Of a stretch of DNA of 64,000 nt, positions 15,239 to 60,934 are shown piece by piece. The stretch is from an uncultured archaeon (GTDB lineage Archaea > Thermoplasmatota > Penumbrarchaeia > JASLWR01), in assembly GCA_964342815.1 (NCBI GenBank), contig CAYFHS010000021.1:1-64000 (forward strand). The letters are read 5' to 3'. The stretch's first letter is position 1. The number at the start of each line of letters is the position of its first letter. Both the position numbers and the translations under genes were made by a program. The notes below the pieces were generated by a model that had not been told where the DNA came from, made no database searches, and saw only the letters and a program-made list of their open reading frames with translations.

Positions 15239-16699
15239 ATGACCATTGTGATATCCCTATTCCTTATTACAACAACGAATGTCTCCGGCCAAAGCAATAG
15301 CGATTGTTCCACCTGCCATTCGTTCCCGGATCCCAGCGACGGATATGTTTATGATCCTCCTGTCATTTTTATCAATGTACCCTTTTTCGTCGATCTCCAT
15401 GAGGATTTTACAATTGAAGCAGGGCTCGATTTTAACGAATATGAGATAAAGGAAATAACTTTGACCATCGCGCAAGATCAGCCCATATTAGATTTTGAAA
15501 AAACAACTATCAAAGCAAATGATTTGGATGAAAGGACTACCTTTGATTTCAAGGCCACCACCCTTAAATTGGGTGTAACAAAATTATCCATCACGGCGGA
15601 GGTCATGGTCTACTTTGACCACGCGGCCGGGGAGGAAGATGACTACAGGGAGGAGTCCATTGTAAAATATGCTCTCGTATCGGTAGGGCCCACATATCTC
15701 GAGCCGTCTTCATGGAGTATTTTATTGGGCGAAAAGGGAGAAATAATAACCCTGACTGCCATCGAAGATATTACCGATTTAAAGATAATCCCGCCATCTT
15801 CTCTTACTGCCTCGCCCACAGAAACAAATATATTGAACAAGGGCGGTGCGCTTTCCGTTAAATTGAGCCCCGTAAACGATGAAAAGATCGATGATAATAT
15901 AATTGTTACCTGGAAGCAGGAGGGCACACCTTACGCTTTGACCATAGGGGTCGTATATAATCCGGAAACGGAAGGGGGGACCGACTACCATTCCTGGGTC
16001 GGAAGAATTACGGGAATCGCCTGTATAATCTTGCTGATATTATCTTTGATACTAGGGGGTATGTGGAATACGAAGGGTTTGTTGAACCGAATCATCAAAT
16101 CCTCCACCAGGATCAAGATCCACTGCGCCGTTTCCTGGTTCCTGTTCGCTCTGGCCCTTTATCACGGACTCAATCTGTTGATATCCCCCTATTCTCAAAA
16201 ATTATGGAATCCGTGGATAGTCCTGGGAGAGATCGGGGCTCTGTCAATGTTAGTGGTAGGTCTAACTGGCAGCTACATGAAGTTCACGATAAAGTTGATG
16301 GGTGCCAGGAAATGGAGGGGATTTCACCTCTATGCCACCTTTGCCGCCCTGGTATTGAGTTCGATTCACGGTATTCGCATTGGAACCGATCTCGCATTCA
16401 TAAGGGATAATATGATATTGAGTAGAATCATAATTATTTTATTGGCGATGGGGGTGGTCCTGTCCATCGTTCTATATATTGCCTCGGGAAAGAAAAGCAA
16501 GAAGAAAACTGCAGCTGACCGTGATACCCAGCATACCAAAAAGTCAGACTTAAATAAGAAAAATTCACAGGAGGATTATAATTGGAATACAAGGGGCAGC
16601 CGTGATTATTATATGGACGATTATTATGATAATGCGGAAAAAAATCATAAAAAAGGTCAGCCTGACTATTACGGTGATGATCACCGGGAAGATTATTGA
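15239..16699 (+). CDS. Exported CxxCH domain plus ferric-reductase-like/cytochrome b transmembrane domain
   Basis: Signal peptide, then CSTCH (15305-15319). Four C-terminal TM helices carry paired His (KIHCAVSW...LYHG; GFHLYA...SIHG), followed by a Tyr/Asp-rich tail. Start placed at ATG 15239; the ORF is open from 15182. Confidence 0.65.
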   Translation: MTIVISLFLITTTNVSGQSNSDCSTCHSFPDPSDGYVYDPPVIFINVPFFVDLHEDFTIEAGLDFNEYEIKEITLTIAQDQPILDFEKTTIKANDLDERTTFDFKATTLKLGVTKLSITAEVMVYFDHAAGEEDDYREESIVKYALVSVGPTYLEPSSWSILLGEKGEIITLTAIEDITDLKIIPPSSLTASPTETNILNKGGALSVKLSPVNDEKIDDNIIVTWKQEGTPYALTIGVVYNPETEGGTDYHSWVGRITGIACIILLILSLILGGMWNTKGLLNRIIKSSTRIKIHCAVSWFLFALALYHGLNLLISPYSQKLWNPWIVLGEIGALSMLVVGLTGSYMKFTIKLMGARKWRGFHLYATFAALVLSSIHGIRIGTDLAFIRDNMILSRIIIILLAMGVVLSIVLYIASGKKSKKKTAADRDTQHTKKSDLNKKNSQEDYNWNTRGSRDYYMDDYYDNAEKNHKKGQPDYYGDDHREDY

Positions 16700-17042
16700 C
16701 GCTGAACGGAATATGAAAATGTACGTCGCAATGGCGCAGCGGATTATGTGGATGAAGGTCCGGCATGGCCGGATTGGCCCGGATCCGAATGTCGGAGGAC
16801 CAGCGGTTGAAAAGGATTTTATCTTTCCCATAAGTTCCATTATCTTCTTATTTTTGCTGACTCTTAGCTTAAAAAAAATTGTTCAAAATTAAATCACCAT
16901 AAGATTTATATGATGCTTTTACGATATTGTTTACACCAGCCGTAAAGATGATATTAACACTATTGATGGACTTGTCCAAGAGGTTTTTGGGAGTTATGAA
17001 GTGAAAGAGATAATTAAAAAAAGGACATTAGTGGTGTAGGGC

Positions 17043-17327
17043 ATGACCTGTCAAAGGTGTGCAAATTGTATAAATGAAACAATATCGAAGATCGATGGGA
17101 TAAAAAAAGTCGGAATCAAGAAAATGGGCAGCGTTCATGTGGAATACGATCTGATGAGGCTCAACATAAAAATGATCGAGAACGAGATAATCAATCTCGG
17201 ATACGGTATATCGACAAATCTTTGGCAAAGAGTAAAGAGAGGTTGGATACATTATTCCGAGGAGACTGAATCTCAAAATATGAATTTACCTGCGCCCCCC
17301 TGCTGTTCAAAACCTCCGATACCTTGA
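17043..17327 (+). CDS. HMA-domain metal chaperone-like protein, N-terminus interrupted by an in-frame TAG
   Basis: GMTCQRC HMA motif and C-terminal PPCCSKPP. The upstream frame from GTG 17001 reads VKEIIKKRTLVV*GMTC. Confidence 0.7.
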   Translation: MTCQRCANCINETISKIDGIKKVGIKKMGSVHVEYDLMRLNIKMIENEIINLGYGISTNLWQRVKRGWIHYSEETESQNMNLPAPPCCSKPPIP

Positions 17328-17409
17328 AAACTAAGTTGCGATTTACCGCGATATACACTGCCGGTTTCCAAAGGTGCTTTGAATATCATATGATAAATTG
17401 GAGAATACC

Positions 17410-19878: not shown

Positions 19879-19885
19879 TACATCC

Positions 19886-21661
19886 ATGAAATGGAAAATT
19901 ATTCTATTACATATGGTACTGATCGGCGCAAGCATAGGTCTTACTGGTTGTTTGAATCTGATGGATCAGGGTGCCAATACAGGGGGGGATGAGAAATACG
20001 AGATGATGGAGGGCATGGTAGTCACGGAATCGGGATACTCCGGGGACCCGCAGAACGGCAATGAACCATCGCAGCAAACATTGGAGCTAGAACTGATGGA
20101 AGGAATGCTGACCGAGATAAGTTTTACGCTGAGCTGGACCGATGACGAACCCGAATCCGATCCTGATGAATTCAAGCTGGAGGTCAGTGGAAATGTTGGG
20201 GGCAGCGAAAAGTCCTTTTCCACCGCCAGCTCTTCTGGAGAGCTCGAGATACTGGTGAGCATCGATGGTTTTTCTATAGAGACTTATGACGGAGATCCAA
20301 GCCTATTGCTGGGCAGTTCCTGGAAAGTAACAGTGACCGTGCTTTCCTGTGGTTCGAAGCCCCTGCTGCCCATTGGCCCAGGAATCTTTCTCAATGATCC
20401 CGATGAAGGGAATGCATGGGACCTTTCAGTGGGGAACCGGCATATTATAAAAATGTCCGGAGATAAACTGAATAAAGCTCCGGATTTCACCATAACGGAC
20501 ACCGACGGAAACAAGGTTTCCTTGTCGGGTTTCTCTGGAAAAATAATCATCCTGGACCTGATGATGGACTGCCCGACGTGTGAAGAACAGATCGATCATC
20601 TCAAGGATCTACAAAAGAAGATGAGAGATCAGATAATCATTATTTCCGTTGATATCGATCCGAGCGATTCCGTGGAAGACGTTAAACGGATAAAGGAAAA
20701 ACACAAGGCCGATTGGATATTTGCGAAAGATACCGATGATCTTCTGGGTAAGTATAGAGTAACCGGCATGCGGAAACTTATTGTGATAGACCAGGATGGA
20801 ATTCCAACATTTACCTCTGACGGTGTTGTGAATTCAGAAAAGTTAGTAGAAAAGGTAAATGGTGCCATAGAAGGGCAGGTCGGGATCATGGTCGGCATAT
20901 CGTCCAGTATTTTTCTCATTGCCTTTATAACGGGTATTACTGCCTTTTTTGCTCCATGCGCTTTCCCTATGCTGCCCGGATATATTACCTATTACGTCAC
21001 AATAGACGAAAAGAACGGAAAGGATGAATCGTCCCCAGATCAAAGGACGAAGTGGGATATTTTATCAAAAGGGCTTTTTACGGGGGCGGTGACTGCATTG
21101 GGCATTGGATCTATTTATATCATCTTTGGACTGCTTCTGTCGATATTCGGAATTTCGATAATGTTCGCCATGAGCTATCTCGCTCCGATAATCGGAGTTC
21201 TCGTTATCCTGATCGGATTAATATTCGTTATGGGTTACCACGATTATATCCAAATATATTTATACCGGGCGAAAAGGGCTGTTGGTCTGGAATCTCTCGG
21301 AAATAAATTGGATCTGGGAAAGAGATTCAAGTTCCGGGATAGGAAGAAAACTGGATACAGCGGTCTTTTCTATTATGGTATGGGTTACGGAGCGGCGTCA
21401 ACCGGATGTCACGGTATCGCCTTCATCTCCATCGTTCTGGTCGGTCTCGCATCAAACGGATTTGTGGGCTCAATCACCACCACACTGCTATGGATACTGG
21501 GAATGGTGATGATCATGATATTGGTAACCGTTATTCTAGCATTTGCCAGGACGGGCTTCATATCGTTCATAACAAAGAATATGGGAAAGATCAACAGGAT
21601 CACGGGAGCCTTTCTGGTCCTCGCCGGAATTGTGATATTGATCTATGAATACACGGTCTGA
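19886..21661 (+). CDS. Fusion: exported N-terminal domain + thioredoxin-like redoxin + CcdA/DsbD transmembrane domain
   Basis: Lipoprotein-like signal (LTGC), KAPDFTITDTDG...DCPTC redoxin domain, and CcdA motifs FFAPCAFPMLP and STGCHG across six TM helices. Confidence 0.85.
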   Translation: MKWKIILLHMVLIGASIGLTGCLNLMDQGANTGGDEKYEMMEGMVVTESGYSGDPQNGNEPSQQTLELELMEGMLTEISFTLSWTDDEPESDPDEFKLEVSGNVGGSEKSFSTASSSGELEILVSIDGFSIETYDGDPSLLLGSSWKVTVTVLSCGSKPLLPIGPGIFLNDPDEGNAWDLSVGNRHIIKMSGDKLNKAPDFTITDTDGNKVSLSGFSGKIIILDLMMDCPTCEEQIDHLKDLQKKMRDQIIIISVDIDPSDSVEDVKRIKEKHKADWIFAKDTDDLLGKYRVTGMRKLIVIDQDGIPTFTSDGVVNSEKLVEKVNGAIEGQVGIMVGISSSIFLIAFITGITAFFAPCAFPMLPGYITYYVTIDEKNGKDESSPDQRTKWDILSKGLFTGAVTALGIGSIYIIFGLLLSIFGISIMFAMSYLAPIIGVLVILIGLIFVMGYHDYIQIYLYRAKRAVGLESLGNKLDLGKRFKFRDRKKTGYSGLFYYGMGYGAASTGCHGIAFISIVLVGLASNGFVGSITTTLLWILGMVMIMILVTVILAFARTGFISFITKNMGKINRITGAFLVLAGIVILIYEYTV

Positions 21662-22048: not shown

Positions 22049-23146
22049 TCACATGCTGCTGCCGTGGGGCTGCACCATGAAGACCAGGAATACGAAGATA
22101 CCCATGAAGAAGTAGCACAACGCCACCTCCCTTTTACTAAGGCGGGAGTCCTTAACGTTCTGGGCTCGTCTCATGGCAAATTTGCTCCACCCGAATAATT
22201 TTTTGTAAGTATTGCTTCTCATTATCTGCGCCCTGTTGAGATACATGGGAATCGCCCATAGTATCAACACGATGGATGAAACATTATCTGCATTTGTATA
22301 TGAAAAAGCGTCGGGCTGCCAGATTGCAGGTATTCCGGTCCAGCAGTTTGCCCACCCGTACATCTTGCCAGCAACCCAAATGCCTATGGGCACCGCAGCG
22401 AGAAAGAAAGCCCAGAACGATATCATACCCAGCCAGATCGTGAGCCCCTGTCCCGAAAACAGTTTTTTGATCCGTGAGTTTGTCCCTTCCCATCTGTTTC
22501 TTACCAGCAGGTATATTCCCGATGCCGCACTGGTAATGAGAAATGTGTAAGTGGAAAGGATCATGAGTCCGACATGTGTCCAGAATATCGGGGAGGCCAG
22601 CAGCGCCACAACGTTGGCGGGAGGTCCTCCAGGCCCACCGCTCATTGGCTCGGTGTAAACATAGGTGATCACGAGGCTCCAGCTGTTGCCCGGGTCAGTG
22701 GCCTGTCTCAATCCCAGGATGCCAATGGGTGTTGGTCCGGCGGATAGGCACGCGACCTCCACTGTAAAGCTATTATTAAGATTCTCCTCGGTTCGGGTTA
22801 CAGTCACTCCACCACTGTTGCTCTGGCCCGATACGGGACCGTTTACGGTATCGACTGCGGTCAAACTGAAAGTGTCCGGGTCTGAGCTTGAGCCTTCGTC
22901 GTCCTGCCAGGAGAGAACGAAGGTAATTTCGATTATCGTGCCCTCGGGGAGGTTGACTGATTCTTCTTGGACGGAGCCGGCCTGATTCGTGGAGGGATTG
23001 TCACAATAACCGTTCATAGTTATTGTTCCGGTTTTTTCTTCCGGTTCCTCTCCTACGTGCGGTGGTTGAGCGGCACCGCTGATATTTCCAAAAACCAATA
23101 GCAATAATATCATAATGATGGCTGATGTGACGATTCTATCTGACAT
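22049..23146 (-). CDS. Exported N-terminal domain + divergent CcsA/CcmC-like heme-handling membrane domain
   Basis: Signal peptide and an N-domain similar to that of 19886..21661. The TM part has WTHVG and IGIWVAGKMYGWANCWTGIP, resembling a degenerate WWD loop. It lies directly downstream of ccmE. Confidence 0.5.
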   Translation of the reverse strand: MSDRIVTSAIIMILLLLVFGNISGAAQPPHVGEEPEEKTGTITMNGYCDNPSTNQAGSVQEESVNLPEGTIIEITFVLSWQDDEGSSSDPDTFSLTAVDTVNGPVSGQSNSGGVTVTRTEENLNNSFTVEVACLSAGPTPIGILGLRQATDPGNSWSLVITYVYTEPMSGGPGGPPANVVALLASPIFWTHVGLMILSTYTFLITSAASGIYLLVRNRWEGTNSRIKKLFSGQGLTIWLGMISFWAFFLAAVPIGIWVAGKMYGWANCWTGIPAIWQPDAFSYTNADNVSSIVLILWAIPMYLNRAQIMRSNTYKKLFGWSKFAMRRAQNVKDSRLSKREVALCYFFMGIFVFLVFMVQPHGSSM

Positions 23147-23287: not shown

Positions 23288-23686
23288 TCAGTATTTGGAT
23301 GGACAACCGGTCTGGATTTCGTTTGATTCAACGTGAATTGGATCCTTGTGAAAGACTCCCGTGACGGTGACTGTTGAGTTGATTCCGAAATTTTCCGGTA
23401 TTGTTCCGGTATAGGTTATATTTATTGCCAGATTATCATCATTCGAGTCTCCCAGGGTGAAATTCACCGTACTGCTGTCCCATTTTATTACCACTCCCTG
23501 CAGACTCAATTCCTCCCCATCGTATTTATCGGGATCATCGAGAAGATCGGATACCTCGTATATTTCATTATTCGGGATCATTGCCCATATCATTATTCCC
23601 ACGATAAGAAGCACTATTATAATGGCAATCGTGATTTTGACCTGTTTTTCAGAGAGTTTCTTCCTTTTCTTTTTTTCTTCCGCCAT
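23288..23686 (-). CDS. ccmE: Heme chaperone CcmE, CxxxY variant
   Basis: N-terminal TM anchor, OB-fold-like body and C-terminal GCPSKY, adjacent to ccmC. Confidence 0.88.
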   Translation of the reverse strand: MAEEKKKRKKLSEKQVKITIAIIIVLLIVGIMIWAMIPNNEIYEVSDLLDDPDKYDGEELSLQGVVIKWDSSTVNFTLGDSNDDNLAINITYTGTIPENFGINSTVTVTGVFHKDPIHVESNEIQTGCPSKY

Positions 23687-23817: not shown

Positions 23818-24498
23818 TCAATCACCTATTTTTTGTTTTATGAACTCGATTGATTCACGAAGATTCTCGTTTTCGACCTTGGTTAAAAGCAGATAGATAT
23901 ACAGAAAGGTGAATGCAACCGTGGCAACGGCAAGTGAAATTCCCATGGAAGCCCTAAGGCTCCCCTCTGACGAGGCGATAACCGTTGGATGGGATTGTTT
24001 CCATATCCGGTTGGCGGCGAAACTCATGGGAATGGATAAGAATCCGATAATCCCGAATACGGCACTGAGGTTTGCCTTCTGTGTTCTTGAATGGACGTTT
24101 GCCCTAAGCGCAAGATAGGCTATAAATATCAACCAGAGGACCAGGGTCATAAATAATTTGATGTCCTCCCATCTCCAGTAAACCCCCCACACGGCCTTGC
24201 CCCACAAGGGGCCCGTGGTTATGGCAATGGTGCAGAAAACAACACCAAGTTCGGCTGAACCGAATGCGTACTTGTCCCATTTCATATCTTTCGTCTTGAG
24301 ATATATCAATCCCGCAACAAAGGTAACGGCGAAGGCAAGATAGGAGATCCATGCGGAGGCTACATGAAAATAAAATATCCTCTGGACATCGCCCATTGTT
24401 TCATGTGGAGGAGCATAGACAAATGCCATGTAAATTGCTACTAACGTAAGAACAATTGCAATCAGCAATATAGGCAATTTTAACTTATTTATATTCAT
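23818..24498 (-). CDS. ccmC: Heme exporter/cytochrome c biogenesis protein CcmC
   Basis: IFYFHVASAW, WWD loop WGKAVWGVYWRWE and a second His in KQSHP. Confidence 0.95.
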   Translation of the reverse strand: MNINKLKLPILLIAIVLTLVAIYMAFVYAPPHETMGDVQRIFYFHVASAWISYLAFAVTFVAGLIYLKTKDMKWDKYAFGSAELGVVFCTIAITTGPLWGKAVWGVYWRWEDIKLFMTLVLWLIFIAYLALRANVHSRTQKANLSAVFGIIGFLSIPMSFAANRIWKQSHPTVIASSEGSLRASMGISLAVATVAFTFLYIYLLLTKVENENLRESIEFIKQKIGD

Positions 24499-24499
24499 A

Positions 24500-25183
24500 T
24501 CACGCCTCTAAAATATAATCCGCTAACAGGTAACCCATGGCGATAAAGACAACGTCAAACGCTAATATAAACTTTATCTCGTTAGCTACGTCGGAAATAT
24601 TTCCACCGGAAAATATCTGGGCCGTACCCGTAACGGCCGACATGACTATTGTGAAGAGCAGGATGGGGACCAGAAGTACGGGGAGCATCACTGCACTGTA
24701 TGCGACCTTTGAGGATATTGCGGAAATCAAGTTTCCCATTGCGGCAAATCCCACGGTTCCCAGAACGATCAGCGTCAGAAGCGCCGGAATATCCGGAGTA
24801 TCCACGGGAAAGAAGGCGAAGAACAGTACAAGTGAAAACATTTCGAGAATGAACATTACCAGCAGGTTTGCCAGGAATTTTCCAAAAAATATGGAGGAGG
24901 GTGAAATAGGGGCCAGCAGAAGTCCGTCCAGTGTTCCTTCGTCTATCTCCCTTCGATATGTAAGTGAAAGGGTGAACATACCGGAAAAGAAGAAAGTGAT
25001 CCAGATCACGGGAGCTGCGATACTGTTCAGAGACATTTCTAGCATGGAGAAGGCGAATCTGAACGACGCAATTATCATCACGGATAGGATGAATGAAGTA
25101 ACGATCATCTGTTTGTTTCGGAACTCCACTTTCAGTTCCTTCAGAAAGATCGCCTTAACAACACTCAGGCAGACTCCCCCCAT
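24500..25183 (-). CDS. ccmB: Heme exporter permease CcmB
   Basis: KELKVEFR, EIDEGTLDGLLLAP, IFFGK and six TM helices, located between ccmA and ccmC. Confidence 0.93.
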   Translation of the reverse strand: MGGVCLSVVKAIFLKELKVEFRNKQMIVTSFILSVMIIASFRFAFSMLEMSLNSIAAPVIWITFFFSGMFTLSLTYRREIDEGTLDGLLLAPISPSSIFFGKFLANLLVMFILEMFSLVLFFAFFPVDTPDIPALLTLIVLGTVGFAAMGNLISAISSKVAYSAVMLPVLLVPILLFTIVMSAVTGTAQIFSGGNISDVANEIKFILAFDVVFIAMGYLLADYILEA

Positions 25184-25878
25184 ATTATTTCATTTAATTT
25201 ATCCGAGAATTCCGATTTGCTGATTCCTTCCGCTTCATATACTATCCGACCGTTTGAAAGGATTGCGCCTCTGTTAGCAATCTCGAAACCCTTGTGGATG
25301 TTGTGGGTGATGAAAACGAAGGTCTTCCCCTTTTTATTCAATCGAAGAATCAGTTCGTTCAGTATATTTTGTGCCTTGATATCCAGGCCCGAGTATGCCT
25401 CGTCGAGAAATATGAGGTCGGGATCATGAAGCAGGGTCCTCGCGAGAGCCAACCTCTGTTTCATGCCTCTGGAGAAAGAGCCCATCCTGTCATAGGCCCT
25501 ATGAAGCAGTCCGGTCTCCTGGAGAAGAACTTTGATCCTTGAGCTTCTGTTCTTGACCGAGTAGAGATAGGCAAAGAAATCCAGGTTCTCCCACGCCGAA
25601 AGCTCAGGGTACAGGTATGGATCGTGGGACATGAAACCGATTTTGGACTTCAGTTCCTTCGAGCCTCCATCGGTATTCTTCCCGAACAGGGTTATTTCTC
25701 CTGAATCGGGAGACATCAGGGTTGATAATATTCTCACGAGAGTGGTCTTGCCTGCGCCGTTGGATCCAAATAGGATATATCTATCACCCTTTTCTATGGT
25801 GAGATCCAGCCCCTTAAGGACCTGCAAACGTCCGAATGATTTTTCAATTCCCTTGGCTACTAATACCGGCTTAGCCAT
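25165..25878 (-). CDS. ccmA: ABC ATPase CcmA
   Basis: Walker A GSNGAGKT, signature FSRGMKQR and Walker B LIFLDE, upstream of ccmB. Confidence 0.92.
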   Translation of the reverse strand: MAKPVLVAKGIEKSFGRLQVLKGLDLTIEKGDRYILFGSNGAGKTTLVRILSTLMSPDSGEITLFGKNTDGGSKELKSKIGFMSHDPYLYPELSAWENLDFFAYLYSVKNRSSRIKVLLQETGLLHRAYDRMGSFSRGMKQRLALARTLLHDPDLIFLDEAYSGLDIKAQNILNELILRLNKKGKTFVFITHNIHKGFEIANRGAILSNGRIVYEAEGISKSEFSDKLNEIIWGESA

Positions 25879-29149: not shown

Positions 29150-30604
29150 CTAGGACTGTTTTTCGTAGATATCAATATATCTTTCCCTCAATTCGAGATA
29201 TACTTCTTCATCAAGGGAGCCGGATTCATAATCGTCTTCCAGGCCCATTAATGCTTCGAGGGATTTCCGTTTCCGTTCACCCGTTTTTTCCTCATTTATG
29301 TCATGGCTTATTCGCTCGGATGAATTTTCAGAGGTATTGGTAACATTATCCATCTTCCTCGTCAAGCGTTTCCTGAGTATTATGAAAATGGTGAGAACAA
29401 TACCGATTGCCACCAGCATCAATGTTATGGCAAGCTGATTATCACTATTACGCCCGCCATCCTGATTATCGTCCGCTTTTTTCTCTCCGGTGTTGGGCAA
29501 TGCTCCCATGAGCTCGAAACTTATCTCTGTTCCCTGGTCTCCCTCCCATTCTCCGTAGTAGTAATCACTATTACCTGAAGACCTCTTCTGAAAAGATATT
29601 TCCTCAATTCCCACCGGCGGCCCCGTCTTCGGAATCACGAAAACCCTCATAAGTGAAGTGCCATAAAGCGTTTCTTTTGAAATTTTTATGGTTCCGTTCT
29701 CCGTGGGTTCGAACATTTTCTCATATAACGAGAAAAAGTGCAGCATATAATTTGCCTTGATATAAACGAAGAATGTCTTTTTTTCATTGCTTTCCAGGTT
29801 GATGTCAGGGATGCCGTTTTTATTGGAATCGAATGTTGAAGCGGCTTCCCAATATCCATCATGATCGCTATCGTATCCCACCAGTGTATCGTTATTGTTC
29901 AGCCATCCGTCTTCGTTGCTGTCCGCGTACATTTCCAAGGTCAGCCCGGCGGGGATACCGGAGTTATTGATTTCATAGATCGATCTTTTACCGGCATTGT
30001 TCACCACGGAGAAGTTCAGGATGGATTTCCAGCCTCTGGTAAAACCCTCCCGTACCCATCCCCATTCATCGGTTTCAACCATAATGTCGGAATCCGTGGA
30101 GCCCGAATCGACCTTTCGGGTATAGCTAGTGGTGTCTTCGGGTTCGTCGATGGAACGGGCCTCTATCTCGAAATCAAATTGTTTAGCATAGTTTTCCGGA
30201 AGGATCACATTTTGCGTATCCCAGTAGTAATTATTTCTATCACGGCTCCAGCCGAAACAACTGTGTCCACCGGTCTCCGAGACCTTGCACGTCATCCCCT
30301 CACTTGTATCGATATCGTCCGGAAGCCAGTTGTAGACAAGACCGTAATAGGGTTTACTGCCCCGATTTCGTATCCAGAACTCATCTTGAACAGATATTCT
30401 ATTGAGATCATTCTCTTGTGTTAGGCTTATTCTGTGCTCGGCCACTTCAAGATTGTCAAAGCCCTGGCCGTCACCCGATCTTGAGATAAGCAGGGAGGGT
30501 GTAATCCCGGCGGCATTGTCCGCACCAATCCCCGGATTTATCAGAATACCCAATAATAGAACGAAGCTGAAAAATAGAATGGACCGGCCCCTGCCAATAT
30601 TCAT
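29150..30604 (-). CDS. Exported membrane-anchored protein with a C-terminal short helical motif, ccm-operon accessory
   Basis: Signal peptide, large ectodomain with CKVSETGGHSC, TM helix, and tail LEDDYESGSLDEEVYLELRERY. Confidence 0.75.
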   Translation of the reverse strand: MNIGRGRSILFFSFVLLLGILINPGIGADNAAGITPSLLISRSGDGQGFDNLEVAEHRISLTQENDLNRISVQDEFWIRNRGSKPYYGLVYNWLPDDIDTSEGMTCKVSETGGHSCFGWSRDRNNYYWDTQNVILPENYAKQFDFEIEARSIDEPEDTTSYTRKVDSGSTDSDIMVETDEWGWVREGFTRGWKSILNFSVVNNAGKRSIYEINNSGIPAGLTLEMYADSNEDGWLNNNDTLVGYDSDHDGYWEAASTFDSNKNGIPDINLESNEKKTFFVYIKANYMLHFFSLYEKMFEPTENGTIKISKETLYGTSLMRVFVIPKTGPPVGIEEISFQKRSSGNSDYYYGEWEGDQGTEISFELMGALPNTGEKKADDNQDGGRNSDNQLAITLMLVAIGIVLTIFIILRKRLTRKMDNVTNTSENSSERISHDINEEKTGERKRKSLEALMGLEDDYESGSLDEEVYLELRERYIDIYEKQS

Positions 30605-30609: not shown

Positions 30610-31893
30610 TTACTCCTTTATCCGATCGATCTCCTTGAGAATTTCGATTGTCTGTTTTTTATATACTCCCACCATTTCCTCATACAGTTCTTCATCGAGA
30701 ACACCGGTTTCCCGGTCATCTTCCAGTTTGCTGATGGCTTTCAGCATTCTTTCCTTCTTGAGGAGCAATTCTCTCATTTCTTTACTCTCAGCTTTCGAGG
30801 CATTTTGGGTGGATTCTTCATCAAATTCAGCGATCCTTTTTTTGATTTTTTTCAATTTGAGTTTATATTCGCCTCGAAGCTCGTCGAAAATCTCCTTGGA
30901 AATAAGACCGCTCTTGTAATCCTTTTTCAGTCGTTCGGTGGTTTTGAGTATCTTTTTGATCTCACCGGTTAGTTCACTCCTATCCTCCACAGAAGACACC
31001 GTTTCGACCTTTTCATCCGCCGGTTCCGGATCGTGTTCGCTTTCCTGTACTGCCCATTTACTTGCGGCCCTTTTTTGCCTTGTAGATGTTTTCGTTCCAA
31101 CAGAGTGAGTTCCCGCTTCCTCTTGGATAGTTTGATTTTTATTACCTTTTTTATAGATGAACATGATAATTACAAAGCCAATCGCGATTATAATTAGAAT
31201 ATAGATGAACATTTTCGTCGAGTTTTCCGATGATACTTTCACAGGTCCCGGATCTGTATCATCGTCCCCGGCGTTCAGATCTTTCGAAAAGCTGAATGAT
31301 ATCCCTTCGCCCTGTATCTTTGACAGGGTTACGCTGTGCTGGGTAACATATTTATTTGAACTGGCAAGGTATATAAGTTCAAGATCGTTCTCTCCCTTTA
31401 CCTGTGTATCTTCGAAGGGTTCGAAAGTTATCAATATGTTCTCATTGTCATAAAGAAAGGTCTTTCCGAAAAGGTTTTTTTCAGCTATGGGATACTCCAG
31501 AGTATATGAAAAGGCCATCTGAAGGATTTCACCGGGTTTGAGTGATACATTGCCGGTAGTATTGACATACAGAAAATTGCTGACCGGATGTACTTTCAAG
31601 TTGTACGTTTTTTCATTATATATGACACTAAATGCTCGGATTTCCTTCAATATATTCCCTGGTTGGGACCAGGTATATATTTTTCCTGAAAAATCTTCAT
31701 CACCGGTGTTGTTGAACCAGATATTTTCATCTACCAGGAGAGTTGTCTGTGATGTCTGCTCGATTGTAATGTAATGATTGTCCACGATCAGCGATGCCGC
31801 AAAATTGGGCATTTCATCCCCTTCGGAGCCGTGCTGCGCCGATAAGGTGGGACTGATAAGCGTAAAACTTGCGAATATTATAATGGTCATCAT
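30610..31893 (-). CDS. Exported membrane-anchored protein with two C-terminal short helical motifs, ccm-operon accessory
   Basis: Signal, ectodomain and TM helix, then LKKDYKSGLISKEIFDELRGEY and LEDDRETGVLDEELYEEMVGVY. Its N-terminal region (H.I.I.Q...V.E..W..N.G...Y.G.IY.W.P) resembles that of 29150..30604. Confidence 0.75.
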   Translation of the reverse strand: MMTIIIFASFTLISPTLSAQHGSEGDEMPNFAASLIVDNHYITIEQTSQTTLLVDENIWFNNTGDEDFSGKIYTWSQPGNILKEIRAFSVIYNEKTYNLKVHPVSNFLYVNTTGNVSLKPGEILQMAFSYTLEYPIAEKNLFGKTFLYDNENILITFEPFEDTQVKGENDLELIYLASSNKYVTQHSVTLSKIQGEGISFSFSKDLNAGDDDTDPGPVKVSSENSTKMFIYILIIIAIGFVIIMFIYKKGNKNQTIQEEAGTHSVGTKTSTRQKRAASKWAVQESEHDPEPADEKVETVSSVEDRSELTGEIKKILKTTERLKKDYKSGLISKEIFDELRGEYKLKLKKIKKRIAEFDEESTQNASKAESKEMRELLLKKERMLKAISKLEDDRETGVLDEELYEEMVGVYKKQTIEILKEIDRIKE

Positions 31894-31948: not shown

Positions 31949-34648
31949 TCAACTCCTAAATCTTTTCAATTCTTCTTCCAACATCTTTTCATAATCATTT
32001 TCAATCTCCGTCCCAATCGCCTTTTCGATGGGGATCTCGCTTCTTTTCTTAAGAGGCCTCGTGAAAGGTTTCCGCGCATGTTTCTTTTTTGTGGGGAAAT
32101 AATCCACCAGGGTTCTGATGGTTATGCCAAGTACAAATAATATCATACCAGCCCAGAGTGCGTTCATACCGGGAATGGTCTTAGCTGTGACGCGGACCTC
32201 GTTGTCCCTGATTCCATTGAAACTGACATAGAGATCCTCCTTGAACATTTGATTTACATAAATGGCGGATTTCGTAAGACCTGTAAATCGGTGTTTTCCA
32301 TGAACATTAAAATAGTCTCCCATATCTTCGATAATAAAGCTTCTGTCGTCATCCTCCAATATTACAAATTTGTTTATTTGTTTTGTCTCAAATTCTTTTT
32401 TCGCCGCACTGTATACGCGTTTAAAGTGCGGCCCCATTCCAGTTGATATTTTCGCCTCATCACTTAATTGGACTCCGTTTTTCTCAAATTCATTACGAAT
32501 TATGGAATCAACCGGGCCAGCTTTCAAGCTCTCCCGATAACCCGATGATAGACGTAATAACCATTCCCGAATATCATATTTTCCATTGCGACTGTAAATC
32601 ATACCCATTTTGCCTTCTTCGATGAAATCATTCTCTTCATAAACTTCAATACTTACATCCCAGGTATCCCAGTATTCGTTGGATTCCTTATCGCCGGTAT
32701 CTTCAGTTATATCGATCGACGTAAGTTTGAGTCTATAAGAATCGATGATGATCGTGTCTTTAAATACAGTTATTCCTCCCATGGAAACCTCAAGTCGGTA
32801 CTCTACGGCACCGTCAATTATTTTCCACGTATTTTCATCGAGGGGTATGATTTTTGGGTTTGGTGATGATAATGGTACATCATATGCTTCAAAGGCTTCG
32901 GAAAGTTTTTCCGCTACAGGTCCTTCCGTTAAATAACTGCTATAACTCACAGATAAGGTGAATAAGGCACCTGTCTTAACCCAGTCGTTCGTCTCTATTG
33001 TCATTGTTTGACTGACCCCGTAACCGATGAATAATAATCCCACTCCAAGATGAATGAGATGCGGACTGGTTGTTTTCAACGTGTTTTTAAGGGAACGAAA
33101 ATTGACAAGTTTTATTATTTTATAAATTGAGGCGAAAATTGCTAGAAGGCAAAAAGGGATCAGAAACCCAATTACGTGATGCGTGGATATGAAATCGAAG
33201 TAGAACATTTCCGCCTTGCCCGGGAATAGGTATTTGGGGAGGAACAATGCACACACAATTCCTCCCAAGAAGGTCCATCCAATGATGTACATGGTATTTT
33301 CTTTTCCAAAATACCTCCAGCATAGACAAACTCCCATGGTGATCAACAAAAGAATAAGAAAGGGAGCATATCGGGTCTCGTAAAACCTCTGGTCTATCTT
33401 CCCCATGGTAAAGACCAAGCCGATTATCGTAACGATGGTAAGGATAGCAAAAAGCAATATTGTCGCTTGCATGCTCAGGGAATCCCATCTATTCTTGTAA
33501 TTCGTCTTGGGTTCATCGAGGACTTCAGTGCGATCTCTTGTGAAAATAGACATAATGATGATTATGGCGCTCACGATCAGAGTGGTTATCATGGCCGCGA
33601 TGAGAATCCACCCAATCTTGGTTTCGGACCAGGCGTGAACGGATTCCCACATGCCGCTTCTAGTAATAAATGTGGCGAATATGACCAATAAAAATGTAAT
33701 GGCTCCTAGGATCGGCGTTATGAAAACATATTCCTTTTTTCGTTTATTCATCAATTGAGTATGCAGAAAAGCAGAGAGCGTTATCCACGGAACGAGAGAT
33801 CCGACTTCCACGGGATCCCATGCCCAGTATCCGCCCCATCCCAGGGCCACGTAGGCCCAGCCTGCACCCACACAAATACCCAGTGTCAGGAACAACCAGG
33901 CAAGCCTGCTCCATTGCAAGGAGACGTTTGTCCATTTTTTATCCCCGGTGATGGAGTAAGAAAGACTTGATGCAAAGGGAATTGTGATGAAAGCGTATCC
34001 AATGAATAGCAGTGGCGGATGGATCACCATCCAGAGATTACGAAGCATTGGATTTCCGCCGAGCCCTCCGGGGTTGAGAACTCGCGGGTCTGTTGGTATT
34101 ACCGTTCCGTCAGCTTTAGTAATGTCTATAAAATGATTGGTTATTGCATCGAACGGATCTTTGACTACGAGGAGAATTAAGAATACTAGGATGACCCCGA
34201 GGACAATGGTTCTTGTAAAATCATAGGTTCTATCGACCGTCTCTGTGTTGTTTTCGTCATCAGTGTCATTCGAATCCAGAAGGAACGGTCTGTTTTTTCT
34301 GTTTTTTAAATGCTGGATCAGTTCCTGGACTCCAAGGGGGATTGTAATGAGCCATACCCATAGAAGAAATGATCCCTCCTGTCCGGCCCAAGTCCCGGAA
34401 ATCTTGAGATACCAGGGAAAGTTCTTTGCTGTGTTGTTCCAAACATAAAATATGTCGAAATTCGTTGTAATGAAGTAATATACGAGCAAAAAGTATGCCA
34501 GGCTTATCGTGGCCACAACTCCGATGGCTGCGATAATGGCAAATTGTCGATAATTTCGGTCCCTGGTAAAATGGTGAATTATCGACGTTAAGAACGCACC
34601 GCCGCAAAGAAACAACGATGCCCATAATAGAAACGTTCCAGGATTCAT
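31949..34648 (-). CDS. ccmF: Cytochrome c synthetase CcmF with enlarged C-terminal external loop
   Basis: WAGQEGSFLLW, HPPLLFIGYA, WWD loop WAYVALGWGGYWAWDPVE, and further His in AFLHT, SVHAW and LIHLG. Start placed at ATG 34648; the ORF is open from 34729. Confidence 0.95.
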   Translation of the reverse strand: MNPGTFLLWASLFLCGGAFLTSIIHHFTRDRNYRQFAIIAAIGVVATISLAYFLLVYYFITTNFDIFYVWNNTAKNFPWYLKISGTWAGQEGSFLLWVWLITIPLGVQELIQHLKNRKNRPFLLDSNDTDDENNTETVDRTYDFTRTIVLGVILVFLILLVVKDPFDAITNHFIDITKADGTVIPTDPRVLNPGGLGGNPMLRNLWMVIHPPLLFIGYAFITIPFASSLSYSITGDKKWTNVSLQWSRLAWLFLTLGICVGAGWAYVALGWGGYWAWDPVEVGSLVPWITLSAFLHTQLMNKRKKEYVFITPILGAITFLLVIFATFITRSGMWESVHAWSETKIGWILIAAMITTLIVSAIIIIMSIFTRDRTEVLDEPKTNYKNRWDSLSMQATILLFAILTIVTIIGLVFTMGKIDQRFYETRYAPFLILLLITMGVCLCWRYFGKENTMYIIGWTFLGGIVCALFLPKYLFPGKAEMFYFDFISTHHVIGFLIPFCLLAIFASIYKIIKLVNFRSLKNTLKTTSPHLIHLGVGLLFIGYGVSQTMTIETNDWVKTGALFTLSVSYSSYLTEGPVAEKLSEAFEAYDVPLSSPNPKIIPLDENTWKIIDGAVEYRLEVSMGGITVFKDTIIIDSYRLKLTSIDITEDTGDKESNEYWDTWDVSIEVYEENDFIEEGKMGMIYSRNGKYDIREWLLRLSSGYRESLKAGPVDSIIRNEFEKNGVQLSDEAKISTGMGPHFKRVYSAAKKEFETKQINKFVILEDDDRSFIIEDMGDYFNVHGKHRFTGLTKSAIYVNQMFKEDLYVSFNGIRDNEVRVTAKTIPGMNALWAGMILFVLGITIRTLVDYFPTKKKHARKPFTRPLKKRSEIPIEKAIGTEIENDYEKMLEEELKRFRS

Positions 34649-34730
34649 TTTTACACCGATCAAATCACAGTATTCAGGGATCAACACGTGAAAATCTTTT
34701 TCTATTTTATCCACAACAACAGTCTTCAAA

Positions 34731-49557: not shown

Positions 49558-49568
49558 GACAGATCCTC

Positions 49569-50264: not shown

Positions 50265-50276
50265 TCTCGAACCCCT

Positions 50277-51095: not shown

Positions 51096-51896
51096 TTAAT
51101 CCTCTACCTTGAACTTGGGAGATTGTGAGTAGAAATTATAGGCGTTTTCGAACACTACCTTTCGAATAGCCTCCTCACTCAACCCTAATTGTGGGAATTG
51201 AGCTGCGGCTTCTGCCACATTCAGGGGATATGATTTTCCCCAATCAGCTGAACTGTTAATGACAATTCGTTCAGCTCCATATTCTTTTATCATCGCTGCT
51301 GCCCGCTCGTTATTGATCTTCGTCGGATATAGCGTCATGCCTGCAAGTATCTTCGGTATTTCTAATGTAATTGCCATGGTCTCCTCTGTGTTGTGGTCCA
51401 TGATATAACGTTTCAGGTCTACATTCTCTTCATCAAGGATCTTGAGCACACGCTCAACGCCCACACGCTTGTTTATATGAGGTAAGTGGATTATAACAAG
51501 AAGCTTATTCTTTTCAGCTATCTTCACATGTTTCCGAAATATATCCTCTTCTTCCGGGGTAATAAGGTCAAGCCCTATCTCCCCAACACCGAGGCAGTTT
51601 GGATGGTCAAGATACTCCTCAAGGGATTCAACTACCTCTAATGCAATATCAGTGTTTCGTGACTCTTTTGCGTTTACTCCCAGAAAAGAATAATGATAAA
51701 GACCGTATTTGCGTGCCCTATTATGCTCAAAATCGAGCATGTGTCTGAAGTAATCAAAGAAACTGCCTGCGCACGAGCGATCAGTTCCGGACCAAAATGC
51801 AGGTTCGATTACAGCGACATAGCCTGCTTCTTTCATCGCCTCGTAGTCATCTGTCGTGCGTGCATACATATGTATATGCGGATCAATAATTTTCAT
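51096..51896 (-). CDS. TatD-family metallohydrolase, EboB-like
   Basis: IDPHIHMYARTTDDY, EPAFW, GEIGLD, IIHLPH, MDHNTEE and INSSADWG. Confidence 0.88.
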   Translation of the reverse strand: MKIIDPHIHMYARTTDDYEAMKEAGYVAVIEPAFWSGTDRSCAGSFFDYFRHMLDFEHNRARKYGLYHYSFLGVNAKESRNTDIALEVVESLEEYLDHPNCLGVGEIGLDLITPEEEDIFRKHVKIAEKNKLLVIIHLPHINKRVGVERVLKILDEENVDLKRYIMDHNTEETMAITLEIPKILAGMTLYPTKINNERAAAMIKEYGAERIVINSSADWGKSYPLNVAEAAAQFPQLGLSEEAIRKVVFENAYNFYSQSPKFKVED

Positions 51897-51897
51897 A

Positions 51898-57247: not shown

Positions 57248-57295
57248 AAAGGTGATTAGATCCCTCAATGAAATGTGTATCCATGGGAATTCACG

Positions 57296-58369
57296 TCACC
57301 TGGAATGTACCCGTTTCAAGTGACGTTCAAGATTTTCAGGCTTCAGGTCGCTCATGCACTCAGGACATTTCATCATCGACTTTTTTTTCTTCGTATTATT
57401 TGTTTTTTCAATCGATTCTTCGGATTTTATCTTACGATATCTCCGTTTCTTCAAAATTACCTGTATAATGATAGTAACTATTATCACAATTACCACCGAC
57501 ACGACAAAGGTCGATAACATTACGTTATACTTTTCATCGCCAGTAGCACCTGAATCATTCGGTTCGAATCCCTTGGTGATATTCACCCACATGGTATCCG
57601 TTCCCGCTTGACCCGCGGCATCGGTCACGCGGAGGGTTATCAAGTAGTCACCCTTGATCAGGAATGTAAAGCTTGCAATCTTTCCAAACAGGACACGAAC
57701 TTTCCCGTCGTAATTTAATGTCCAAGTCCAGTTCGCAACTCCCACGTTGTCAGCCGACAAAGATCCGTTGAACTCTGCAACCGTTCCCCGAGGACCCTGC
57801 AAATCGAGTCCGGCCATTGCCGTCGGCGGGGTAATATCCTTCACCACAAATTTTAACCCAACGGTATTATCCTGTCGGTATCTGGCACCATTCCCATGAT
57901 GCTCACTTGCAAATAGATAATAAGTTCCCGCTTTCGTCGGTCCCTTTAGTTCCCATGTCAAGGTATCTCCTAGGGTAACGTTATTTTTCTGATAAAAATT
58001 GTAGTTACTGGTACCGCCTGGGTCAGTAACAATATCCCAGCCATCCACTGAGGGTTGGCTGCTACTCGTTATCAGGCTTTTTCTGAGGAATACACCCATC
58101 GGGGAGTTGCTGGCTTCGGCACCATCCACTGTCACGGTTACGACCACCGTCTGGCCGGCTTCCAGATTGAGATCACTGGCACCCATGCTGATCGTCGAAG
58201 TGCTTTGGATACCATGGCAGGAACCACCGCAGTTATACTCCCGATTGCCGCTTCCCGGACCACCTGGATTTCCGGAAGTTTCCATAGAAAATAACAATAA
58301 CAACACTCCAGTTGAAATCATCAAAACGATTATACCTCTGATTTTTTCCGTTCTTTTCAATTTCATCAC
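57296..58369 (-). CDS. Exported protein with N-terminal CxxxCH, PKD domain, TM anchor and cytoplasmic C2H2 zinc finger
   Basis: CGGSCH at 58214-58231, PKD-like FNGSLSADNVG...WTW...TLRVTDAAG, a TM helix, and CPEC....KPENLERHLKRVH. Confidence 0.78.
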   Translation of the reverse strand: MMKLKRTEKIRGIIVLMISTGVLLLLFSMETSGNPGGPGSGNREYNCGGSCHGIQSTSTISMGASDLNLEAGQTVVVTVTVDGAEASNSPMGVFLRKSLITSSSQPSVDGWDIVTDPGGTSNYNFYQKNNVTLGDTLTWELKGPTKAGTYYLFASEHHGNGARYRQDNTVGLKFVVKDITPPTAMAGLDLQGPRGTVAEFNGSLSADNVGVANWTWTLNYDGKVRVLFGKIASFTFLIKGDYLITLRVTDAAGQAGTDTMWVNITKGFEPNDSGATGDEKYNVMLSTFVVSVVIVIIVTIIIQVILKKRRYRKIKSEESIEKTNNTKKKKSMMKCPECMSDLKPENLERHLKRVHSR

Positions 58370-58513
58370 TCCCCCGAATCTACATCTATTTATTGATCTC
58401 CGAGGATAATGTTGATGCTAGAGTAACACCCACGCTATCAAAAGCGATCCTACCATTTCGGTCGATCATCACCATTTTTATGATGGTTATTAGAAAGAGA
58501 AAAACCATTTTTC

Positions 58514-60934
58514 TCATGTTTCCTTCTTCTTGTGATAATTCGCAAGATATACGCCTAGCACCATGAGCACGGCCATGCCACCGTAGAGCACTGAGTTCCT
58601 CATCCAAGCAGGAAACGGGGAATCCCCACTCTGCTCTTTAGGTTCGATGTTGGCATCATCTTCTATTGCCGTGATGTTCCAGGTTATCTCAATGAAACGA
58701 CCGGAAATCTCATTGGTTATCCGCGCCCTGATCGTACGTGTTCCGACGTTTACTACTGGATAGGCCAATGTAAATATCCCGGTTGCATAAGGTTTGTTAT
58801 CCTCGTACCAGTTAATAGATACATTTCCGACCGTTTCTACATATAATACCACAAGTTCATCTTTGTTAACTAGCAAAGTCTTGCTCCAAGGATGGTGCGA
58901 GATTATCTCGGGAAGACCGCGTTCAGTAGAACCACTGCTCACCTCTTGGGTCGTCACATTCACTTCATCACTCGGGGCGCTTTCTCCAAGCAAACTGACA
59001 GCAGTGACATAATAATATAAATTATTGTAATACGATATGTTTGGATCCCCATCTCGGTATTGAGTCAAAATTGAATTGACTGATGAATAATAGGTTTCGG
59101 CACCTGAAAAAGGACCGCGATAGATATTATATATAAAAATAGCCAAACCTCCGTCATCCGTTGGAGTTTCCCATGAGAGATCAACATATCCGTGACTGAG
59201 TATCCCGCTCAGGTTTAGGGGCGCCGAAGGTTCTCTTTGATAAATTACGTTTAGCTCCTTACTGGGTTCGCTCCCCCCCAAAGAGTTGATTGCAATAACA
59301 TGATAGTAATAGGACACTCCATTTATAACGGAGGTATCGTTGTAAGATAGCGTTAATCCACTGACCATGGAAAAGTCAATAAAATTGCCTGATCCATCCC
59401 CTCTATATATCCTAAAAGCAGTTATTATAGCTCCCCCGTCGTTATCCGGGGCTTTCCAGATCAACATGACATACTCCTTGCCCACACTAGCCTGAACTTC
59501 CTTCGGAGGTTCCGGGGGACCCCGTGGGTTTGTGATATTGATATCACTCGGCTCTGATTCTCCTACGGGGTTGACCGCGGTAACATAGTAATAATAAATT
59601 TCTCCGTTGATAATAGAGGTATCGTTGTATGAGGTTGTGAAACCCAGTGCGGAATCAAAGAGAGTTTCATCACCAGAATTAATACCCCGGTATATATTAT
59701 ATCCCATTATAACGGTACCACCGTCATCGGATGGAATCCCCCAGTATAAGTGGACAAAACCGTTTCCTGCAATGGCCTCGAAATTTCCCGGGGCTGAAGG
59801 ATTTGTAATATCTCTTTCAGGTGATGCAAACAGCTCGATACTGGGATAGGATTCACCAACCGAATTAACAGCGGTAATATAGTAGTAATATTTTATCCCG
59901 TTTGTAACTGATGTATCGTTGTATGAGGATTTATTAATGTCCTGGGAAATATGGTACGTCTCGTTGCCAGAGGAGTTACCTCGGTATATATTGTAGAACA
60001 TTATTGGTGATCCGCCGTCGTCAATCGATGTTTCCCAGTCCAGTTCAACATAACTATTTCCACTAGTTGCCTTTGGATTCAAAGGCGGCGCTGGACGCCC
60101 ATATGGAGTTACAAAGACCTCAGCACTCTTTTCGGATTCACCAATATAATTTGTTGCGATTATAGAATAATAATAGGTCTCTCCATTGGTAACCAAGGTA
60201 TCATTATATGATGTCGTTGTGCCGCTCAACATGTCATAATAAGTTTCACTGCCGGGATCTCCACCACGATATATTCGGTATTCCATTATGGGTCGATCTC
60301 CGTCATCGTTCGGTTCATTCCATGATAACAATATATAGCCATCTCCCGGGATTGCTGTGACATTTAAGGGCTGGGAGGGAGGTTCATATGGGACTTTAAC
60401 CGAAGTGATGTAGCTGTAAGTATCAATGGCAACGCTATTTTGATGTGGATCAAGGGCGTAGAGGCTAATGGTCAAGGTGTCCTCACCAGGGAGAACCCCT
60501 GTAACAGACCAATTAAAAATCACTTTTTCGTCCGGAAAAAGATTATTTTTTTCTTGCTGAGGGTTGGGAATGTCCAACTTATTATCATTACTGTTCAAGG
60601 TCACTAGTAGCGAGGATATCTCGAAATACGACGAAGGTCCGGGGTCTCCCGTGTTTATTATCTCAACAGCTATCTTAATGACAGTTGAATTCTCGGTAAA
60701 TTCTGTAGGCAGAACGGATAAGGGATCGTTGGGGAGAAGATTACTAAACTCCTTAAAACGGTTGCCATGACACCCTTCACACATATTATCCGAGGCTCTA
60801 TGGGAATCACCCATAATACCAAAGTCTATCACAAGTAGAACTATCAATACCATACTCATCGCGACAATAGGTTGCAGGGCGCGGGTTTTTTCAAATAGTT
60901 TACCGTTTTTCCCCTTAATAGAGCCTCTGAACAT
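58514..60934 (-). CDS. Surface protein: N-terminal CxxCH, five FN3 repeats, C-terminal TM (paralog of 26058..28805)
   Basis: CEGCH at 60767-60781 in the context GDSHRASDNMCEGCHGNRF (paralog: GDSNRASVDMCLGCHGNRY), five FN3 repeats, and a shared YATGI.TL.YP domain. Confidence 0.87.
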   Translation of the reverse strand: MFRGSIKGKNGKLFEKTRALQPIVAMSMVLIVLLVIDFGIMGDSHRASDNMCEGCHGNRFKEFSNLLPNDPLSVLPTEFTENSTVIKIAVEIINTGDPGPSSYFEISSLLVTLNSNDNKLDIPNPQQEKNNLFPDEKVIFNWSVTGVLPGEDTLTISLYALDPHQNSVAIDTYSYITSVKVPYEPPSQPLNVTAIPGDGYILLSWNEPNDDGDRPIMEYRIYRGGDPGSETYYDMLSGTTTSYNDTLVTNGETYYYSIIATNYIGESEKSAEVFVTPYGRPAPPLNPKATSGNSYVELDWETSIDDGGSPIMFYNIYRGNSSGNETYHISQDINKSSYNDTSVTNGIKYYYYITAVNSVGESYPSIELFASPERDITNPSAPGNFEAIAGNGFVHLYWGIPSDDGGTVIMGYNIYRGINSGDETLFDSALGFTTSYNDTSIINGEIYYYYVTAVNPVGESEPSDINITNPRGPPEPPKEVQASVGKEYVMLIWKAPDNDGGAIITAFRIYRGDGSGNFIDFSMVSGLTLSYNDTSVINGVSYYYHVIAINSLGGSEPSKELNVIYQREPSAPLNLSGILSHGYVDLSWETPTDDGGLAIFIYNIYRGPFSGAETYYSSVNSILTQYRDGDPNISYYNNLYYYVTAVSLLGESAPSDEVNVTTQEVSSGSTERGLPEIISHHPWSKTLLVNKDELVVLYVETVGNVSINWYEDNKPYATGIFTLAYPVVNVGTRTIRARITNEISGRFIEITWNITAIEDDANIEPKEQSGDSPFPAWMRNSVLYGGMAVLMVLGVYLANYHKKKET

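Follow-up and report, generated by a model that had tools for sequence, protein, structure and literature searches.

A 64,000-nucleotide stretch of DNA from an uncultured Thermoplasmatota archaeon (contig C21, positions 1-64000; hereafter the window) encodes five proteins that each carry a single haem-c-type motif, which we label P1 to P5. Three of them, P1, P2 and P5, appear from sequence comparison to be true c-type cytochromes that would together form a transmembrane electron wire, a reading in which we have moderate confidence. The genome that contains the window (G000; 4.35 Mb, 89% complete) has a small-subunit rRNA scoring 1513 bits against the archaeal model, and the window DNA is recovered in seawater and marine metagenomes from several studies, whereas no RNA run containing it is listed; G001 denotes a genome of the same genus. 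An Asgard origin was considered and set aside: a search for actin-family proteins gave no match, and near-identical proteins are named Candidatus Thermoplasmatota at NCBI. The five motifs had been pointed out in a sequence-only reading of the window. That observation is real; its interpretation holds in part, and the system behind it extends further than first seen.

All five motifs were confirmed where that reading had placed them (its positions for minus-strand genes are the lower coordinate of the His codon), in long open reading frames (ORFs) and each just after a hydrophobic N-terminal segment: CSTCH at residue 42 of ORF 15182-16699 (P1), CLGCH at residue 53 of ORF 26058-28805 (P2), CGSCH at residue 47 of ORF 34731-35048 (P3), CGGSCH at residue 47 of ORF 57296-58369 (P4) and CEGCH at residue 52 of ORF 58514-60934 (P5). 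The chance expectation from amino-acid composition is about 0.0004 CxxCH motifs per protein in residues 20-110. A six-frame census of the 4.35-Mb genome, in which an N-terminal hydrophobic segment had to be followed by a motif within 110 residues, returned 10 ORFs: three multihaem cytochromes, one spurious ORF and six single-motif proteins. Five of these six sit in the window, within a 46-kb stretch, and the sixth is a paralogue of P4 on contig C2. The motifs are real and cluster far above chance. They behave as a functional site, being invariant down to about 20-25% sequence identity, and each of the three families to which the proteins belong has a second conserved His (18/18 P2/P5 sequences, 4/4 P4 sequences and 73% of the P1 family). 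The hydrophobic segment ahead of every motif agrees with the proposal that the proteins are exported or anchored, and AlphaFold2 (AF2) models with an N-terminal helix followed by a sandwich are consistent with an extracytoplasmic motif. None of the five is a classical globular cytochrome c, as had been suspected: cytochrome c models gave no match for P1-P5 at E ≤ 0.01 (Pfam) or E ≤ 0.1 (NCBIfam), save a 13-bit match of P3 that is at chance level.

P1 (15239..16699, plus strand) is composed of a signal peptide, the CSTCH motif, a CARDB-like Ig haem-c domain, a second beta-sandwich, five predicted transmembrane (TM) helices and a cytoplasmic tail. The description of the proteins as monohaem surface proteins on a scaffold does not hold for this key member, which is a fusion to an FRD (ferric-reductase-type) membrane domain predicted to bind two b haems through His295/His309 and His363/His377. 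Full-length homologues of P1 are found in 29 of 40 relatives (30 of 41 genomes when the window's own is included), and 27 sequences drawn from these genomes have CxxCH straight after the signal peptide. The P1 N-domain, used as a profile in an exhaustive search of 1.84 billion representative sequences, gave 362 matches. Among the 81 of at most 650 residues, 70 have CxxCH within the first 90 residues; these short matches are mostly 400-450 residues long and have two H-x13-H pairs at fixed positions, and the other matches correspond to CARDB repeats of giant surface proteins. Across 52 P1-family representatives (at most 50% identity), C23, C26, H27, H295, H309, H363 and H377 are 100% conserved. 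The AF2 model of P1 (mean predicted local distance difference test score, pLDDT, 84) shows two beta-sandwiches and then five long helices, with the His pairs on predicted helices 288-315 and 356-381, about 13 residues apart within each pair. Pfam Ferric_reduct (PF01794) is matched by the membrane domain of 40 of 44 P1-family members at E ≤ 1 (best 2.5e-9). In a comparison of the family membrane profile with the PDB, the His pairs align on the haem ligands of DUOX1 and of 8qq7 (E 0.016-0.037), a bacterial protein deposited as 'FAD-binding FR-type domain-containing protein' that we take to be a NOX homologue. In a Foldseek search with the full P1 model, tandem Ig proteins dominated the result, which gave no information on the membrane domain.

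P2 (26058..28805, minus strand) and P5 (58514..60934, minus strand) are paralogues with 47% identity. Both have an N-terminal TM segment (an anchor in P5), a haem domain with the CLGCH or CEGCH motif, FN3 repeats, an Ig domain and a C-terminal TM segment, which in P2 is followed by an acidic tail. By eye there are six FN3 repeats in each; Pfam scores three stretches in P2 and four in P5. The haem domain, 140 residues long, comes after the N-terminal TM helix, and its positions C33, C36, H37, W123 and H145 (C52, C55, H56, W142 and H164 in P5 protein numbering) are invariant in 18 P2/P5 homologues, down to 18% identity. When compared by hhalign, the P2/P5 and P1 haem domains match with a probability of 96.9% (E 1.8e-10), CxxCH lying on CxxCH and late His on late His; by this profile evidence the haem domains of P2/P5 and P1/P3 are homologous. 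The AF2 model of the P5 N-domain (pLDDT 88.6) is an Ig-like sandwich whose closest fold matches (Foldseek and VIA) are macroglobulin MG, transglutaminase-C and CARDB Ig domains, with Z of about 10, so that the fold, as modelled, is a CARDB/MG-like Ig sandwich. Haem proteins are absent from the top 50 fold matches of either search, cytochrome f, DOMON and Cyc2 included, an absence that does not exclude them; no Pfam DOMON or EB_dh match was found for the haem domains. A word-indexed homologue search reached near-identical proteins only, with three matches for P5 and P4 itself as the sole match for P4, and the exhaustive profile search was needed to reach the wider family.

Several side observations concern these proteins. 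P1 (16540-16699) and P2 (26058-26330) have long predicted cytoplasmic tails rich in Asp, Tyr and Glu, with DDYYDE-like repeats. G000 contig C2 encodes, at about 62474-63740 (locus L039), a P1-family paralogue that has the FRD His pairs and the extracellular sandwiches and is without CxxCH. The P1 orthologue on G001 contig C109 (locus L026) is interrupted by an in-frame TGA, which makes it a pseudogene or reflects a sequencing error.

The five proteins do not form one class, as had been proposed: P1/P3 and P2/P5 share the haem domain described above, and P4 is related to it only weakly. P3 (34731..35048, minus strand; 105 residues) had been listed among the exported proteins. It consists of a signal peptide, CGSCH and about 55 residues of sandwich, and matches only the first 94 residues of a 442-residue same-genus orthologue that runs on into an FRD membrane domain; a tblastn search of G000 recovered residues 1-94 of that orthologue and did not find the rest. 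P3 belongs to a second P1-family subfamily with the motif CxxCHSGF...P.EVP and is, judged by this comparison, a gene remnant, the decayed copy of a P1-family gene. The possibility that P3 and the neighbouring ccmF form one frameshifted gene was rejected: the frames differ, the same-genus orthologue continues into the FRD domain instead, and tblastn found residues 1-94 only.

P4 (57296..58369, minus strand) has a signal or anchor segment, CGGSCH (Cx3CH), a beta-sandwich with HGNG, a PKD domain, a TM segment and a Cys2-His2-like tail that is predicted to be cytoplasmic. Cx3CH and HGNG are invariant in the four P4-family sequences. The profile probability is 84% for P4 against the P1 N-domain and 24% against the P5 N-domain, and P4 is best classed, from these profiles, as a separate and more distant Cx3CH family. 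Scores against the NCBIfam choice-of-anchor V model (NF041895) fall below its cut-off of 42 bits (P4 24.9, the C2 paralogue 34.7 and P3 17.3 bits), and the ESM Atlas neighbours of P4 include clusters with a Reeler domain in a minority of members. The tails of P4-family proteins in G000 and G001 (57296-57400 in the window; loci L053 and L057) have a conserved Cys-x2-Cys...His/Cys zinc-finger-like motif, which is unusual for a membrane-anchored surface protein; a homologue in another relative, G012, is without the tail.

The reading that we favour can be set out as follows. CxxCH would be the attachment site of haem c, located on an N-terminal extension of the CARDB/macroglobulin-like Ig sandwich, and the conserved His near the end of the sandwich is probably the sixth haem ligand, which would make it a bis-His haem c. 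The four invariant His of the four-to-five-helix FRD-type domain of P1 would bind two b haems, so that P1 may act as a one-polypeptide wire from the inner face of the membrane or the quinol pool to an inner haem b, an outer haem b and finally the external haem c. P2 and P5, with the same haem domain on an FN3 array, would be the conserved partners of P1 that hand electrons to outside acceptors. In the window's genus the acceptor may be the haem-b gamma subunit of a membrane-anchored type II dimethyl sulfoxide (DMSO)-reductase-family enzyme exported by twin-arginine translocation (Tat), or the flow may be reversed; Fe(III) may be an alternative acceptor for the haem c of P5/P2. Haem would be attached in G000 by the adjacent archaeal System I, that is, CcmABCEF and a thioredoxin with a CcdA-like membrane domain.

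Gene neighbourhoods bear on where the electrons go. P5 and P4 follow a molybdoenzyme operon, as the sequence-only reading had noted; they come after the gamma and delta genes of this type II DMSO-reductase operon, and P5 is its last conserved gene. The window includes the genes for the gamma subunit (EB_dh, haem b; 62747..63940, minus strand), which has a C-terminal TM anchor, a NarJ/TorD-like chaperone (delta; 62027..62740, minus strand), and a 350-residue polytopic membrane protein (61027..62079, minus strand) that is conserved in the operon and has no family match; the beta gene and the alpha gene with its Tat signal lie just outside the window (locus L004). The order alpha(Tat)-beta-gamma-delta-membrane protein-P5-P1 paralogue is kept in G001 and in one ENA contig, with the P1 paralogue where G000 has P4. 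In 15 relatives and two metagenome contigs a P5-like gene immediately precedes a P1-like gene. In four relatives of family f7 (loci L058, L059, L060 and L062), feoB and a small conserved ORF are followed, after about 0.7 kb, by a P5-like/P1-like/CcsA-like module, an arrangement that suggests Fe(III) as the acceptor in these sediment relatives. The same vicinity also hints at reductive iron uptake.

Iron uptake is the core of the first alternative, according to which the P5-like/P1-like module is an assimilatory ferric reductase that, like eukaryotic FRE and CYBDOM proteins, reduces Fe(III) or Cu(II) outside the cell so that the metal can be taken up; it would stand outside the respiratory chain, the molybdoenzyme link of the window's genus being secondary. 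The membership of the P1 membrane domain in the ferric reductase superfamily speaks for it together with the four feoB loci, the location of the module among housekeeping rather than respiratory genes in other relatives, and the position of P1 in the window 0.7 kb upstream of a gene for a heavy-metal (HMA-domain) P-type ATPase. But P5 (in G000, G001 and the ENA contig) and the P1 paralogue (in the latter two) close the operon of a Tat-exported type II DMSO-reductase, the arrangement expected of an electron-donor module, and the feoB synteny is confined to one family and forms no tight operon. We regard an assimilatory role as rather unlikely.

In the relatives, maturation genes follow a different pattern, and the claim that the proteins are interleaved with their own Ccm machinery is correct for the window's genus and does not extend to them. 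Only 3 of 41 genomes yielded CcmE, with the protein query and the Pfam model alike, and 4 of 41 yielded full-length CcmF. Instead, 19 genomes have a gene for a CcsA-like protein of about 140 residues directly downstream of the P1-like gene, and in seven further pairs a second P1-family paralogue is accompanied by another copy of the small gene. More than 20 sequences of the small protein share the motifs HPP...WGxFWSWDPKET...GLHSF, i.e. the WWD loop and both flanking His. Among NCBIfam models the protein scores best against TIGR03144 (System II CcsA), at 62.9 bits versus a cut-off of 187.6 and over the C-terminal third of the model only. In the loci examined, its gene has no CcsB/ResB partner next to it. 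The genomes with CcmE or full-length CcmF are without the small gene, and it was not found in G000, which has CcmABCEF. Example loci are L003:6019-6498 and L013:2728-3144, the gene being always directly downstream of a P1-family gene. By its motifs the protein is a candidate minimal cytochrome c synthase. We also checked whether homologues of the single-motif proteins are common in genomes without a maturation system, and the distribution favours haem: among the 41 genomes, 26 have both a P1-like gene and a haem-handling partner, four a P1-like gene only, none a partner only and 11 neither (26 of 30 P1-like-positive genomes against 0 of 11 negatives; Fisher p 4e-7, related genomes not being independent).

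The close pairing allows a second alternative, in which the P1-family protein and the CcsA-like protein are a CcsBA-like machine for haem export and attachment, the membrane His holding haem in transit and CxxCH acting as a CcmE-style covalent relay. It would account for a protein that has the WWD loop and flanking His without extra helices or a CcsB partner, and whose gene pairs one-to-one with P1-family genes, the second paralogous pairs included; it also fits the window's genus, where System I is present, no small CcsA was found and one P1-family copy (P3) is decayed. However, two pairs of His with 13-residue spacing on two helices, together with the Ferric_reduct/NOX-family matches, are the signature of stable b haems, the CxxCH domain has the conserved distal His and the Ig fold typical of a finished redox protein, and P1, P2 and P5 are intact alongside CcmABCEF. 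A role in haem handling is in our judgement improbable. We consider it very improbable that CxxCH is instead a disulfide or a Zn/Fe site steadying the N-terminus of an extracellular Ig domain in adhesins or S-layer-associated proteins: CARDB, FN3 and PKD scaffolds are typical of adhesins, no known cytochrome fold was recovered, and P4 has an unusual Cx3CH spacing and a C2 paralogue without redox neighbours, but the His right after the second Cys is invariant, each of the three families keeps the second His, one of them is joined to a predicted di-haem membrane domain, P1-like genes strictly adjoin and co-occur with genes for haem-handling proteins, and the neighbourhood includes Ccm genes and an exported redox enzyme.

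Several points weigh against the electron-wire reading itself. The whole case for haem c is built on sequence-based evidence, and H128, the putative distal His, is conserved in only 73% of the 52 P1-family representatives. FRD membership is drawn from family-level matches and marginal PDB profile matches, P1 alone having no Ferric_reduct match at E ≤ 1 and no Pfam match at E ≤ 0.01. P1 has no cytoplasmic dehydrogenase domain. If the N-terminal helix of P2/P5 were cleaved, the FN3 array would hold the N-terminal haem far from the membrane. The module is dispersed in G000, where P1 is 42 kb from P5 and P4 fills the slot after P5. No haem-handling gene was found in four P1-like genomes, all of them incomplete and two with the P1-like match at a contig edge; G012, which has P1-like and P4-like genes and no haem-handling gene found, is a record with runs of N and 78% completeness. 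A complex prediction for P1 and the P5 N-domain (score 0.02) carries no weight either way.

With these reservations, electron transfer by P1, P2 and P5 is the best reading of the function, in keeping with what had been suggested from the sequence; the proteins make up several families rather than one undescribed class. It is possible, and we say so only tentatively, that Thermoplasmatota have a self-contained three-gene electron-export module (an FN3 monohaem cytochrome, a monohaem-c/di-haem-b FRD wire and a CcsA-like synthase of about 140 residues) that has been re-plumbed in the window's marine genus to System I and to quinol-side donation to an outward-facing Nar-type molybdoenzyme. If so, the CcsA-like protein would be the smallest known cytochrome c synthase, maturing its neighbour without detected CcmE or full-length CcmF or an adjacent CcsB, and the molybdoenzyme connection would be a third archaeal wiring of such enzymes, beside bc-type NarBC and NarM.

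Known systems offer partial parallels, the closest functional analogues being, as far as analogy goes, MsrQ-type FRD proteins and eukaryotic CYBDOM/FRRS1. FRD superfamily proteins without a dehydrogenase domain (MsrQ/YedZ and short bacterial FRE; PF01794) resemble P1 in having four His on two helices for two b haems and no cytoplasmic flavin domain. MsrQ feeds the periplasmic molybdoenzyme MsrP, a pairing that recalls P1-family genes at the end of a molybdoenzyme operon; unlike MsrQ-type proteins, P1 has two extracellular sandwiches, the N-terminal one being the monohaem-c Ig domain. CYBDOM/FRRS1 proteins (SDR2) combine DOMON and/or Reeler with cytochrome b561 and are trans-membrane (ferric) reductases (PMC10784544, PMC10691727). 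They are like P1 in that an extracellular one-haem beta-sandwich is fused to a di-haem-b membrane domain, and differ in having b561 rather than FRD, DOMON rather than a CARDB/MG-like domain, and haem b rather than covalent haem c; no sequence or fold match to them was found. The CcsA of System II and the CcmC and CcmF of System I have in common with the 140-residue protein the WGxFWSWDPKET loop and both flanking His; the small protein is not even half as large as CcsA. Cytochrome f and the monohaem cytochrome-porin Cyc2 have a single CxxCH near the mature N-terminus, packed on a beta-rich domain, and cytochrome f has a C-terminal TM anchor. In the window proteins the sixth ligand is probably His, not the N-terminal amine, and a porin is absent. 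Predicted monohaem cytochromes c of Ignicoccus hospitalis (cluster 38) have CxxCH after the signal peptide and were modelled on a Reelin-N beta-sandwich (PMC4429474). They recall, by description only, the Reeler-carrying Atlas neighbours of P4, and differ in having no FRD, FN3 or PKD fusions.

We found no description of P1/P2/P5-type families in the literature, and database members are named 'hypothetical protein'. The archaeal cytochrome c survey does not list the architecture of P1; it reports no System II in archaea, and a pair of Ignicoccus proteins is its one similar case (PMC4429474). A survey of FRD proteins has no cytochrome c fusion, treats archaeal FRDs as rare transfers from bacteria and infers that archaea have no ancient FRD genes (PMC3591440). 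If our reading is right, c-type cytochromes would gain a new structural class in which an Ig/CARDB fold bears the haem, and P1 would be the first FRD (NOX/MsrQ-type) membrane cytochrome fused to haem c, which would overturn the view of archaea as without old FRD genes. The small CcsA-like protein of the relatives would be a candidate minimal haem lyase and a simple system for studying haem attachment to cytochrome c. The way in which single-membrane archaea connect the quinone pool with external metals, or with redox enzymes that face outwards, is known in few cases. As the family is found in marine and cold-seep Thermoplasmatota, a group without cultured planktonic representatives, it is relevant to their respiration and iron physiology.

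The haem-maturation genes of the window lie between P1 and P3, and P2 and P3 are within the run ccmA-B-C-E ... ccmF, as the sequence-only reading had it. The run comprises, all on the minus strand, ccmE (23288..23686), ccmC (23818..24498; TIGR01191, 1.4e-31), ccmB (24500..25183), ccmA (25165..25878; ABC ATPase) and, beyond P2, a ccmF/nrfE-type haem lyase gene (31949..34729). The CcmE product ends in CPSKY, with Cys replacing the usual His, which is presumably the archaeal type. The true ccmF start is probably the ATG near 34648, and its product has a C-terminal extension of about 340 residues that is extracytoplasmic and has no family match. Two genes between P2 and ccmF encode exported proteins with no CxxCH and no family match, one C-terminally anchored (29150..30604, minus strand) and one anchored (30610..31893, minus strand). 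On the other side of the run, 19886..21661 (plus strand) encodes an exported N-domain, a ResA/TlpA-like thioredoxin and a C-terminal polytopic domain that is CcdA-like by eye and has no family match; this product is probably the thiol-reducing branch of cytochrome c maturation. Its exported N-domain of about 150 residues is shared (BLAST 1e-11) with a membrane protein encoded at 22049..23146 (minus strand), which resembles the haem-handling family PF01578 weakly (21.6 bits against a cut-off of 29.9).

Elsewhere in the window, 48235-53097 (minus strand) is by eye an ebo-like cluster, with inositol-phosphate-synthase-like, TatD-like, xylose-isomerase-like TIM barrel, UbiA prenyltransferase and phosphodiesterase-like genes; such clusters are rare in archaea.

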